Shown: positions 6,720 to 61,205 of the stretch, in pieces
How positions within the stretch are numbered: position 1 is the first letter of the stretch
Layout of the letters: each line of letters opens with the position of its first letter
Source: Eledone cirrhosa
Lineage: Eukaryota
Length of the DNA stretch: 64,000 nt
NCBI GenBank assembly: GCA_964016885.1
Contig: OZ024740.1
Location: 348,564,001 to 348,628,000, forward strand
Direction: 5' to 3'
Notes under the pieces: generated by a model
The model's database searches: none
Told to the model about the DNA's origin: nothing
Seen by the model: the letters and a program-made list of their open reading frames with translations, nothing else
Program-made: the position numbers and the translations under genes

Positions 6720-7169
6720 TATGGTTTTATAAATATAGTTTCCATTTGTTAATATCGTATATATATATATATATATATATATATATATATATATATATAT
6801 ATAACGAAGGAGTTGTGGTAAGGAACTAGATGGACCATAACGCACCAGAGTACTCAATACTTAGGATAGTAGAGTGGGTAATAGGAGAAAGTGTGACCCC
6901 GACGGCAGAGCTCAAGCTGTTTCGACGGCTATTTCTGGACTCCGTCGGGGTCATACTTTCTCCTATATATATATATATATATATATATATATATATATAT
7001 ATATATATATATTGGAATAAATGCTCTGAAATAGCGATATATATGTGAATATAGACATAGAATATTCGAAAATATTCTGTATGTTTATAATAAACATTTT
7101 GAAGACCTAATCGCTATAGAATAGAATACGTCACGTATTACAATTAGATTCTCGATAAAAGCAAGGGAA

Positions 7170-7213
7170 GTAAGTCTACGCGTTTCATTCTCGTTAGAAA
7201 TCGTCAGGACTAC
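7170..7213 (-). ncRNA. Minimal hammerhead ribozyme, first of 9 copies at 311-bp spacing in the left arm
   Basis: Minus strand: GTAGTC-CTGACGA-T-TTCT-AACG-AGAA-T-GAAA-CGCG-TA-GACTTAC. Confidence 0.8.
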
Positions 7214-10158
7214 ATATCCAGTGCTTTTATCGAGAATGACACAGCTAGAGACTTATAGAATACTTAGCTGTGTACAGGAACTGGTTTGAAAGAGCGGTTG
7301 CCGGTCCGGCAGAAATTAGAAATTGGAATAAATGCTCTGAAATAGCGATATATATGTGAATATAGACATAGAATATTCGAAAATATTCTGTATGTTTATA
7401 ATAAACATTTTGAAGACCTAATCGCTATAGAATAGAATACGTCACGTATTACAATTAGATTCTCGATAAAAGCAAGGGAAGTAAGTCTACGCGTTTCATT
7501 CTCGTTAGAAATCGTCAGGACTACATATCCAGTGCTTTTATCGAGAATGACACAGCTAGAGACTTATAGAATACTTAGCTGTGTACAGGAACTGGTTTGA
7601 AAGAGCGGTTGCCGGTCCGGCAGAAATTAGAAATTGGAATAAATGCTCTGAAATAGCGATATATATGTGAATATAGACATAGAATATTCGAAAATATTCT
7701 GTATGTTTATAATAAACATTTTGAAGACCTAATCGCTATAGAATAGAATACGTCACGTATTACAATTAGATTCTCGATAAAAGCAAGGGAAGTAAGTCTA
7801 CGCGTTTCATTCTCGTTAGAAATCGTCAGGACTACATATCCAGTGCTTTTATCGAGAATGACACAGCTAGAGACTTATAGAATACTTAGCTGTGTACAGG
7901 AACTGGTTTGAAAGAGCGGTTGCCGGTCCGGCAGAAATTAGAAATTGGAATAAATGCTCTGAAATAGCGATATATATGTGAATATAGACATAGAATATTC
8001 GAAAATATTCTGTATGTTTATAATAAACATTTTGAAGACCTAATCGCTATAGAATAGAATACGTCACGTATTACAATTAGATTCTCGATAAAAGCAAGGG
8101 AAGTAAGTCTACGCGTTTCATTCTCGTTAGAAATCGTCAGGACTACATATCCAGTGCTTTTATCGAGAATGACACAGCTAGAGACTTATAGAATACTTAG
8201 CTGTGTACAGGAACTGGTTTGAAAGAGCGGTTGCCGGTCCGGCAGAAATTAGAAATTGGAATAAATGCTCTGAAATAGCGATATATATGTGAATATAGAC
8301 ATAGAATATTCGAAAATATTCTGTATGTTTATAATAAACATTTTGAAGACCTAATCGCTATAGAATAGAATACGTCACGTATTACAATTAGATTCTCGAT
8401 AAAAGCAAGGGAAGTAAGTCTACGCGTTTCATTCTCGTTAGAAATCGTCAGGACTACATATCCAGTGCTTTTATCGAGAATGACACAGCTAGAGACTTAT
8501 AGAATACTTAGCTGTGTACAGGAACTGGTTTGAAAGAGCGGTTGCCGGTCCGGCAGAAATTAGAAATTGGAATAAATGCTCTGAAATAGCGATATATATG
8601 TGAATATAGACATAGAATATTCGAAAATATTCTGTATGTTTATAATAAACATTTTGAAGACCTAATCGCTATAGAATAGAATACGTCACGTATTACAATT
8701 AGATTCTCGATAAAAGCAAGGGAAGTAAGTCTACGCGTTTCATTCTCGTTAGAAATCGTCAGGACTACATATCCAGTGCTTTTATCGAGAATGACACAGC
8801 TAGAGACTTATAGAATACTTAGCTGTGTACAGGAACTGGTTTGAAAGAGCGGTTGCCGGTCCGGCAGAAATTAGAAATTGGAATAAATGCTCTGAAATAG
8901 CGATATATATGTGAATATAGACATAGAATATTCGAAAATATTCTGTATGTTTATAATAAACATTTTGAAGACCTAATCGCTATAGAATAGAATACGTCAC
9001 GTATTACAATTAGATTCTCGATAAAAGCAAGGGAAGTAAGTCTACGCGTTTCATTCTCGTTAGAAATCGTCAGGACTACATATCCAGTGCTTTTATCGAG
9101 AATGACACAGCTAGAGACTTATAGAATACTTAGCTGTGTACAGGAACTGGTTTGAAAGAGCGGTTGCCGGTCCGGCAGAAATTAGAAATTGGAATAAATG
9201 CTCTGAAATAGCGATATATATGTGAATATAGACATAGAATATTCGAAAATATTCTGTATGTTTATAATAAACATTTTGAAGACCTAATCGCTATAGAATA
9301 GAATACGTCACGTATTACAATTAGATTCTCGATAAAAGCAAGGGAAGTAAGTCTACGCGTTTCATTCTCGTTAGAAATCGTCAGGACTACATATCCAGTG
9401 CTTTTATCGAGAATGACACAGCTAGAGACTTATAGAATACTTAGCTGTGTACAGGAACTGGTTTGAAAGAGCGGTTGCCGGTCCGGCAGAAATTAGAAAT
9501 TGGAATAAATGCTCTGAAATAGCGATATATATGTGAATATAGACATAGAATATTCGAAAATATTCTGTATGTTTATAATAAACATTTTGAAGACCTAATC
9601 GCTATAGAATAGAATACGTCACGTATTACAATTAGATTCTCGATAAAAGCAAGGGAAGTAAGTCTACGCGTTTCATTCTCGTTAGAAATCGTCAGGACTA
9701 CATATCCAGTGCTTTTATCGAGAATGACACAGCTAGAGACTTATAGAATACTTAGCTGTGTACAGGAACTGGTTTGAAAGAGCGGTTGCCGGTCCGGCAG
9801 AAATTAGAAATTGGAATAAATGCTCTGAAATAGCGATATATATGTGAATATAGACATAGATTTCTAACGAGAATGAAACGCGTAGACTTACTTCCCTTGC
9901 TTTTATCGAGAATCTAATTGTAATACGTGACGTATTCTATTCTATAGCGATTAGGTCTTCAAAATGTTTATTATAAACATACAGAATATTTTCGAATATT
10001 CTATGTCTATATTCACATATATATCGCTATTTCAGAGCATTTATTCCAATTTCTAATTTCTGCCGGACCGGCAACCGCTCTTTCAAACCAGTTCCTGTAC
10101 ACAGCTAAGTATTCTATAAGTCTCTAGCTGTGTCATTCTCGATAAAAGCACTGGATAT

Positions 10159-10202
10159 GTAGTCCTGACGATTTCTAACGAGAATGAAACGCGTAGACTT
10201 AC
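10159..10202 (+). ncRNA. Minimal hammerhead ribozyme, first of 5 complete copies in the right arm (10159, 10470, 10781, 11092, 11403)
   Basis: gtagtc CTGACGA tttctaacgagaat GAAA cgcg TA gacttac. It is enclosed by a 16-bp inverted repeat ATTCTCGATAAAAGCA / TGCTTTTATCGAGAAT. Confidence 0.8.
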
Positions 10203-59937: not shown

Positions 59938-60380
59938 TAACAACTAGGAATTGATTAACATATAAATAAACATATGAAACAATCACTGGGGATAATTTTT
60001 ACAAGTGTGTAAGCACACATAGCTAGGTAGGTAACTAAATAAAGTTAACTAGAACTTCAAAAATAGATACCTTATAATATGATTAATCTTCCCTGTATAT
60101 ATTCCATTAAGGAAATATATTTCACAAATTAATCGAATGGTAAATCACAGAGGCCGATACTTGGATTTTCAACAAGGAAGAAGTCCAGCCATCTGTGTTT
60201 TCGCATATTCTTTAATGGAATATATACGCAAGATTAATCATATTATAAGGTATCTATTTTTGAAGTTCTAGTTAACTGTGTAAGCACACATACCTAGCTA
60301 TGTGTGCTTACACACTTGTAAATTATCCCCTGCGATTGTTTCATATGTTTATTTATATGTTAATCAATTTCTAGTTGTTA
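59938..60380. mobile_element. Fold-back non-coding element; related one-armed copy at about 40935-41200
   Basis: TAACAACTAG.AATTGATTAACATATAAATAAACATATGAAACAATC is mirrored at the right end. Confidence 0.7.
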
Positions 60381-60593
60381 TATATATATAAATACATAAA
60401 ATAAAGCCATTGTACAGAGTATCAGTCGAATATGAACAAATGAAGCGGCGGGTGGTGCTCAGTCTGTGAAGGAATTGAAAACTGAAGGTAATCCTAAAAT
60501 TTCAATTCTAATATACATGTTGGTAATGGGATTATATATATATATATAATATATATATATATATATATATATATATATATATATATATATATA

Positions 60594-61205
60594 TTAGAAT
60601 TGGAGCTCTGAAATAGCAATATATATATGGATGTATATATAATGTATTTTGCAATACACTTTATGCTTAATTAAAAGCATTTTGAAGACCGTAAGCTATT
60701 GTTTTTTAGAGTAGTGACAAATTGACTTACTTTGATCTCAGCAAACAGGGGAGATAAGCCGACAAGGCCTTGTTTCGCTTTTGTTGAAGCTTATCAAGGC
60801 TAACTACTCCCACCTGTCTACCGAGATCACTGATGTTATATTCTTATAGAATTCTAGTAAATAATCAGGAGCTGATTATGCAGAGCGGTTGTTGGTCAGG
60901 CAGAAATTAAAAATTAGAATTGGAGCTCTGAAATAGCAATATATATATATGGATGTATATATAATGTATTTTTCAATACACTTTATGCTTAATTAAAAGC
61001 ATTTTGAAGACCGTAAGCTATTGTTTTTTAGAGTAGTGACAAATTCACTTACTTTGATCTATTTCAGAGCTCCAATTCTAATTTTTAATTTCTGCCTGTT
61101 TGCTGAGATCAAAGTAAGTGAATTTATCACTACTCTAAAAAACAATAGCTTACGGTCTTCAAAATGCTTTTAATTAAGCATAAAGTGTATTGCAAAATAC
61201 ATTAT
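60594..61205. mobile_element. Diverged 320-bp relative of the 311-bp unit: about 1.45 direct units plus an inverted arm, in (TA)n
   Basis: It shares GCTCTGAAATAGC, CATTTTGAAGACC and AGAGCGGTTG..GGTC.GGCAGAAATTA. The unit restarts at 60914 and inverts from about 61059. An HHR lies at 60757-60801(-). Confidence 0.85.

Follow-up and report, generated by a model that had tools for sequence, protein, structure and literature searches.

Which enzyme moves the short hammerhead repeats of animal genomes, the retrozymes, is the question raised by a 64,000-nucleotide stretch of the Eledone cirrhosa genome (assembly GCA_964016885.1, contig OZ024740.1, forward-strand positions 348,564,001 to 348,628,000; hereafter the window, numbered from its first letter). 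So far, the answer has rested on the co-occurrence of retrozymes with Penelope-like elements (PLEs) and on homology to the pseudo-long terminal repeats (pLTRs) of PLEs; the loci described here add an integration scar that joins both. Four insertions in the window, two made of retrozyme-like units (families A and B) and two made of a PLE, have the same architecture and the same kind of target, and it is likely that PLE-type machinery mobilises the 311-nt and 319-nt hammerhead repeats. The insertions and their targets are listed below; sites 1 and 2 are the two positions at which arms end, and the tail is the segment between them.

6964-7012: (TA)n target, left of insertion 1.
7011-9860, minus strand: left arm of insertion 1, family A (311-nt retrozyme), 9.16 identical copies with 9 ribozyme motifs, 3′ end at site 2 with tail.
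9859-11579, plus strand: right arm of insertion 1, family A, 5.53 identical copies with 5 ribozyme motifs, 3′ end at site 1.
11572-11617: (TA)n target, right of insertion 1.
24389-24418: (TA)n target, left of insertion 2.
24415-25442, minus strand: left arm of insertion 2, PLE 3′ fragment ending at site 2, 60-nt tail.
25427-26394, plus strand: right arm of insertion 2, PLE 3′ fragment ending at site 1.
26391-26417: (TA)n target, right of insertion 2.
42481-42515: (TA)n target, left of insertion 3.
About 42515-44873, minus strand: left arm of insertion 3, PLE, 5′-truncated, ending at site 2 (55-60-nt tail).
44873-44912: perfect 40-bp palindrome, extended from a 14-nt palindrome of the PLE, that forms the centre of insertion 3.
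44886-51604: partial tandem of the PLE, right of the centre of insertion 3.
60533-60594: (TA)n target, left of insertion 4.
60594-61060, minus strand: left arm of insertion 4, family B (319-nt retrozyme), 1.46 copies, ending at site 2.
61059-61206, plus strand: right arm of insertion 4, family B, with an internal deletion between two 4-nt repeats, ending at site 1.
61203-61248: (TA)n target, right of insertion 4.

All four insertions consist of head-to-head arms whose hammerhead-sense 3′ ends face outward into (TA)n. The outer ends adjoin (TA)n in 8/8 cases, and arm orientation tracks the ribozyme strand in all eight arms. Such divergent arms, with truncated ends fused centrally, had been described in an earlier sequence-only reading of the stretch, and the description holds for 4/4 insertions, with boundaries moving by 1-4 nt. 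Both arms of insertion 1 match a perfect 311-nt multimer with zero changes and overlap by 2 nt at the centre; the internal deletion in the right arm of insertion 4 takes out its ribozyme. Runs of (TA)6 or longer make up 4.0% of the window after removal of the four insertions, and the location of 4/4 insertions within such runs gives p ~3e-6, which counts as a post hoc figure because the insertions were chosen for their (TA)n setting. The left flank of insertion 3 has a paralogue at 34075-34306 that runs out into TA repeats and carries no insertion, indicating that the target of insertion 3 pre-existed. There are no target-site duplications in the unique flanks, and (TA)n itself cannot reveal one. 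The unique flanks (local scores 13-22 over 150-160 nt) are neither mirrored nor repeated, which argues that the insertions are not fold-back read chimeras.

The arms end at two fixed sites, counted in nt downstream of the ribozyme cut site. Family A ends 140 nt (site 1) and 166 nt (site 2) after the cut, 26 nt apart; family B ends at about 123-127 nt and 167 nt, ~43 nt apart; the PLE ends at 164 nt and 219-224 nt, 55-60 nt apart. The earlier estimates, about 60 nt for the PLE and tens of nt for the small units, agree with these measurements. One arm stops at site 1 and its partner at site 2 in 4/4 insertions, as well as in 2/2 inverted insertions of another repeat, family E (see below). Under independent choice between two sites, the chance of unequal pairs throughout is at most 1/16 (1/64 with family E), and this rarity suggests coordinated ends. 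The sequence-only reading had placed the outer ends at AT-rich spots. The ends are indeed AT-bordered and share 1-8-nt AT overlaps with the target, but they fall at two specific sites, the bounds of the known PLE tail, and not at any AU-rich spot: there are 13 ATAT/TATA 4-mers in the 311-nt unit and 28 in the last 600 nt of the PLE, yet two sites are used. Thus, AT-richness alone is insufficient to explain the choice of ends. In the PLE, the tail covers ORF (open reading frame) codons 9-29, resembling a 12-to-22-codon tail in PMC3846280.

The units of families A and B (311 and 319 nt; 65% AT) are tandem and non-coding, with no ORF of at least 150 aa in either unit. The two families are clearly related, their likeness peaking across the tail and just past it. 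A structural motif scan, which in 40 Markov controls of 47.7 kb gave a background of 0.1 hits per control, detects type I hammerhead motifs in family A, family B and the PLE, all reading outward: 14 in insertion 1, one per PLE pLTR copy, and one whole in insertion 4. Extra hammerhead motifs varied with scan settings (6 versus 1), and their tally against downstream (TA)n is not used as evidence. A search of Rfam gave 0 matches at the gathering score. Representative motifs of the two families are as follows.

11409-11439, plus strand: example type I hammerhead of family A (core to cut site), with a 6-nt palindromic helix III.
60761-60797, minus strand: type I hammerhead of family B, with a U3-A8 covariant core and a 12-nt palindromic helix III.

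The family A hammerhead has U-U at the base of helix II, and in the family B core, whole in one copy only, the pair U3-A8 replaces C3-G8. Hammerheads with a palindromic helix III are reported to work as dimers (PMC4209133). The predicted folding of the family A and B units beats that of shuffled sequences (z -4.2 and -5.4, respectively). By unit size, low GC and predicted hammerhead, both families are candidate non-LTR retrozymes (LTR, long terminal repeat). A metagenome pattern scan for a block common to the two families gave 0 hits.

The coding element, to judge from its predicted domains, is an endonuclease-bearing (EN+) PLE with a reverse transcriptase (RT). Its parts in the right half of insertion 3 are the following.

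44886-47316, plus strand: 5′-truncated PLE copy in partial tandem, ending in the upstream pLTR; hammerhead at 47118-47152.
47291-48427, plus strand: N-terminal coding region, with its ATG inside the pLTR, running into an asparagine-rich tract.
47317-47376, plus strand: PLE tail, 60 nt between site 1 and site 2.
48325-51096, plus strand: RT, CX4CxxC linker and C-terminal GIY-YIG, in a different frame from the N-terminal part.
51097-51604, plus strand: downstream pLTR with hammerhead at 51406-51440, ending at site 1 into (TA)n.

The RT motifs DKS and YVDD are invariant in 17 aligned homologues, as are C658, C663 and C666 of the CX4CxxC linker that precedes the nuclease. The GIY-YIG nuclease domain invoked in the sequence-only reading is real (PF01541, 25.2 bits against a Pfam cut-off of 22.6), and the RVT_1 profile match is weak (20.9 bits, below cut-off). 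The closest named protein is a predicted protein of Octopus vulgaris (67% identity), and homologues carry the N-terminal region and the RT in a single ORF. At the frame change of the window copy lies an asparagine-rich low-complexity tract (48050-48430), which recalls the N-rich inserts of rotifer Penelope elements (PMC3846280). Between RT motifs A and B (within 48742-51093), there is a stretch of ~130 residues, conserved in homologues; according to PMC8557442, canonical PLEs with a C-terminal EN have no insertion in the fingers, and the stretch suggests that the PLE may belong to an unplaced lineage. A metagenome scan for relatives of the PLE protein gave 33 pattern matches, 0 of them confirmed. 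Family C is the pLTR of a related PLE (about 38770-39348 and 21829-21900) with a hammerhead core at 39101, and its fragment at about 39050-39350 resembles the pLTR of the window PLE. Family C runs into (TA)n at the same motif, that of site 1, and occurs as single arms with no inverted partner seen.

Whether other 311-nt loci also sit in (TA)n with fixed ends, a check suggested in the sequence-only reading, could be answered in part. Four public sequencing runs were compared with one family A unit, and the contig counts refer to the rows listed. Among them, there are seven contig loose-end rows, three of which stay in family sequence; the other four exit, all into TA repeats and at or near the two sites, namely at site 1 (8 contigs, run X1), at a B-like site 2 (6 contigs, X1), 7 nt beyond site 2 (2 contigs, X1), and at site 2 exactly (1 contig, run X4). 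Three exit rows extend beyond the TA run, where their flanks differ from those of the window. The refuting check set in the sequence-only reading is passed in part. Run X4, deposited under a different organism label, has the 311-nt unit with 0-2 differences, which may reflect horizontal transfer, close kinship or differing labels.

Both arms of an insertion are likely to derive from one template or source variant, as sequence variants suggest. The C at position 10169 is present in 14/14 ribozyme copies of insertion 1 and in 3-6% of reads in two restriction-site-associated DNA (RAD) runs, and 5 substitutions and 2 indels that insertion 3 lacks are common to the two arms of insertion 2. A rare allele in all copies of the one and shared changes in the other make an origin of the arms from one RNA or source variant likely. 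If the passenger RNA has no cis preference, it is unlikely that two independent templates were used; expression skewed to one variant may also yield the shared allele. That the 14.7 copies show no change agrees with the model of PMC7229834, in which a circular template is reverse-transcribed round and round.

A scheme accommodating these observations would begin with tandem transcripts that self-cleave and then circularise, as can be extrapolated from PMC7229834. A PLE protein would attach to the RNA close to the conserved tail block and use its GIY-YIG domain to cut both (TA)n strands, by analogy with PMC11167929 and PMC8557442. Site 1 would be primed by one DNA end and site 2, which lies 26-60 nt downstream, by the other, presumably assisted by the short AT overlaps, to give the ends observed. 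A circular template copied round and round could account for the identical tandem copies present in both arms. Finally, the truncated cDNA ends would join at the palindromes or 1-2-nt overlaps seen at the junctions, and host repair would fill in. The whole explanation, with families A and B as non-autonomous PLE passengers inserted by (TA)n cutting and probably by double-ended priming on one RNA, is put at an even chance, and its component of priming from both broken ends on one template is likewise finely balanced. Concerning the mobilising enzyme, the sequence-only reading had pointed to the PLE itself. PLE-type machinery is upheld, every PLE-specific feature tested being reproduced and the same ends recurring elsewhere; this particular PLE fares less well for want of pLTR similarity and because of its frameshifted copy, and it is doubtful that the PLE family in this window is the actual mobiliser. 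The farthest-reaching form of the idea is offered tentatively: a PLE enzyme would move in trans ribozyme RNA circles that share no sequence with it, and cut (TA)n ends would prime at two fixed neighbouring sites on one circle, writing head-to-head arrays in one step. If so, the PLE tail would be the spacing of two priming sites.

Several facts weigh against this explanation. Families A and B have no DNA similarity to the pLTR or tail of this PLE: for the pLTR, family A scores 29 against a shuffled mean of 29 (101/200 shuffles as good) and family B 32 against 34 (128/200), and the family C control scores 80 (0/200). With scores at shuffle level, families A and B do not qualify by sequence as non-autonomous derivatives of the local PLE's pLTR. 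The longest PLE copy is frameshifted, its N-terminal part and RT-EN being in separate frames; since the split affects the only full-length copy, it is probably that copy, and not the family, that is defective. TA repeats are common, with 22% of window positions having one at most 230 nt downstream. Both PLE centres lie on element palindromes, read as a sign of self-priming in PMC3846280, and in 4/4 insertions the longer arm could have served as the template of the shorter one. The perfect copy identity could have been aided by gene conversion or assembly polishing. Families C and E also occur as single arms with no partner. Run X1 may be the window's own sample, the listing of loose-end rows leaves out 167 more, and the 12 listed RAD loose-end rows (X22, X23) are confounded data, excluded as library ligation products because read ends cluster at AATT sites and the loose ends are random (agreement 0.34-0.49). 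In the literature, no cross-mobilisation between PLE families is reported for a rotifer (PMC3846280), and the start sites reported in PMC11167929 had no homology to the cut DNA and no strand difference in their use.

The alternative that survives best is fold-back, a possible but not a probable account, in which priming happens once: the initial cDNA doubles back on its own 3′ end and templates a DNA copy, which then reaches the second (TA)n end by being cut or primed at the other tail site. The centres of insertions 2 and 3 suit this well, being element palindromes (a 16-nt near-perfect one at 25427-25442 and the 14-nt perfect one extended to 40 bp); insertion 3 looks like a symmetric fold whose left arm lacks the next 100 nt after the palindrome. 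Moreover, the 5′ ends of the arms lie close together, 0-16 and 127 nt apart in the 4288-nt unit (p ~0.008 and 0.06 if independent), and a single template for both arms is predicted by fold-back too. The self-priming from such palindromes put forward in PMC3846280 fits the centres equally well. The earlier interpretation, taken as a whole, is supported in part. However, self-complementary pairs in the PLE unit are mostly local (45 near versus 8 far; 16 nt, 2 mismatches), so two cDNAs would also meet at palindromes; same-sense cDNAs anneal only at such spots, and therefore double-ended priming and fold-back cannot be told apart from the centres. A central palindrome is absent from insertions 1 and 4, whose arms just overlap by 2 nt. 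Double-ended priming is favoured because each arm uses one site, whereas a fold-back copy must halt at site 1 in three insertions and yet pass to site 2 in insertion 3.

It is improbable that families A and B were moved by another enzyme, such as that of a long interspersed nuclear element (LINE), or were captured by host break repair at fragile (TA)n, their likeness to PLEs being convergence. This would agree with their lack of homology to the PLE, with the LINE-type RT frames at 16148-21346 and with the abundance of (TA)n in the window, and LINEs are named beside PLEs as candidates in PMC7229834. Two fixed internal end sites and a one-sided tail, however, are described as unseen in non-LTR priming (PMC8557442). 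The units own no poly(A) or simple-repeat tail, and identical end bases recur at other loci. In L1 twin-priming inversions, the arms are not known to duplicate the same sequence, unlike here, where both arms do.

An origin at the DNA level is very improbable, whether from foldback or MITE-like transposons (MITE, miniature inverted-repeat transposable element) with long terminal inverted repeats at TA or from satellite arrays formed by unequal crossover and later inverted. Inverted arms in TA are typical of MITEs, a TA target duplication could hide inside (TA)n, and local amplification of retrozyme arrays is favoured in bioRxiv 10.64898/2026.07.22.740005. Nevertheless, such transposons require equal, matching inverted repeats, and the ends are unequal, 26-60 nt apart, in 4/4 insertions; the arms are variably 5′-truncated, their orientation obeys the ribozyme strand, an RT-encoding element takes the same form, and 14.7 unchanged copies in two orientations suit a single synthesis event better than slow crossover. 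That the inverted arms are sequencing or assembly artefacts can be practically dismissed, for although insertion 1 is 100% identical throughout and no long read was seen across any insertion (the run data being short pieces only), the flanks do not mirror, the arms of insertions 2-4 carry private differences, the ends recur in public contigs, and an opposite-strand joint of unstated direction within the family A unit, away from restriction sites, is backed by 98 reads in one RAD run and 110 in another (a single start in each).

The window contains further repeats. Eight more inverted pairs were found, two of which, both of family E, have the full geometry.

11849-12815: family E, non-coding, inverted and set in (TA)n, its two ends differing in length by 91 nt.
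54733-54913: second inverted insertion of family E, also set in (TA)n, its two ends differing in length by 76 nt.

Single ends of family E lie at 40719 and 55656, and the first copy includes a SINE-like (short interspersed nuclear element) repeat (12407-12508). Family E has a hammerhead-shaped three-way junction with A replacing U4 of the core, possibly a dead or variant ribozyme. Three other inverted pairs are diverged and partly TA-bound (3452-4223, 59936-60382 and 62893-63210); the remaining pairs (21104-21571, 26581-27290 and 63236-63596) are not counted as matching the geometry. The pair at 21104-21571, with poly(G)/poly(C) runs in its 127-nt arms (98%), encloses (ATT)n and a SINE-like repeat and is not TA-embedded on both sides. 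Family F (59936-60382 and 40941-41215) is a diverged inverted repeat (79%) with one arm ending in TA, and no ribozyme core was found in it. Family D comprises dispersed short units with hammerhead-like motifs at 6661 (plus), 23291 (minus), 55140 (minus) and 61439 (plus); helix II varies between copies, and three of them reach (TA)n 30-75 nt after the cut site. Single hammerhead-like motifs at 3579 (minus), 37347 (minus) and 53294 (plus) have (TA)n 74-201 nt downstream, the first lying within the old inverted pair 3452-4223. Two related, fragmented LINE-type RT regions occupy 15404-21346 on the minus strand. If the proposed trans mobilisation is true, PLE passengers would include many anonymous inverted repeats that sit in (TA)n, family E among them, and, if confirmed, it would provide a rule for reclassifying short inverted (TA)n repeats that pipelines would call MITEs or satellites.

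The PLE half of this anatomy is already known, and the retrozyme-PLE link has been proposed in print, both of which the sequence-only reading overlooked. PMC8557442 describes partial tandems, an inverted 5′-truncated copy and a 30-40-bp tail, often at one end only; it ties the (TA)n bias of PLEs to the zinc-finger-like linker and calls the formation of inverted, tailed insertions undefined. The same form is found in Drosophila virilis (PMC2377424), and PMC3846280 reports palindromes at head-to-head junctions of PLEs and pLTR-flanked cargo moved in trans. PLEs were put forward in 2020 as strong candidates for moving retrozymes, the retrozymes of animals being viewed as non-autonomous PLEs (PMC7229834), and bioRxiv 10.64898/2026.07.22.740005 derives the link from co-occurrence and pLTR homology, leaving the mechanism open; ribozymes and retrozymes are not mentioned in the accessible part of PMC13282606. 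In the open literature, no published account of a PLE integration scar on retrozymes was found, and supplementary files to PMC7229834 and the 2026 preprint may be relevant. On the basis of one window and a few contigs, three things are apparently new: a PLE scar on retrozymes that share no homology with the local PLE, an apparent rule of one site per arm, and the evidence for a single template. The in vitro assay of PMC11167929 could be applied to the 311-nt RNA, which has a defined target and two start sites predicted with single-base precision.

Among known systems, the window PLE shares with EN+ PLEs of the Neptune/Nematis type (PMC8557442, PMC3846280, PMC2377424) the RT with C-terminal GIY-YIG, the CX2-5CxxC linker, the pLTR hammerhead and the partial tandem, as well as the inverted 5′-truncated arm, the palindrome at the inverted junction, the tail at one end and the (TA)n targets. 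It differs in the tail (usually 30-40 nt, 55-60 nt here) and in the frameshift of the window copy in the asparagine-rich tract; the likeness to Neptune/Nematis is one of linker and domains, and the long A-to-B segment is common to its homologues. With animal non-LTR retrozymes (PMC7229834; bioRxiv 10.64898/2026.07.22.740005), families A and B share low-GC tandem units of ~310-320 nt, one type I hammerhead with palindromic helix III in each, and co-occurrence with PLEs. The retrozymes in print form head-to-tail arrays, and the accessible texts describe no head-to-head form, fixed paired ends or (TA)n target; the words "inverted" and "microsatellite" do not occur in PMC7229834. The link in the preprint is one of pLTR homology (24/57 Xenopus families with a Repbase match), whereas the window units show none to the adjacent PLE. 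Chlamys-N and MRC1 of Chlamydomonas (PMC8557442, PMC9977147) are also non-coding PLE passengers, multicopy head-to-tail and with microsatellite targets, and PMC9977147 describes an active autonomous/non-autonomous pair with a common microsatellite target; unlike the window units, they are generally similar to the autonomous partner in their 3′ end, for the most part carry no hammerhead, and target (C)n or (CA)n. The closest biochemical parallel is the Poseidon PLE (PAc), which in vitro cuts and extends both strands at AT-rich DNA and begins copying at two neighbouring internal sites, just inside the ORF, which delimit the tail (PMC11167929). The Poseidon start sites are AC-rich, have no homology to the target and show no strand difference, whereas the window insertions use both sites, one per arm.

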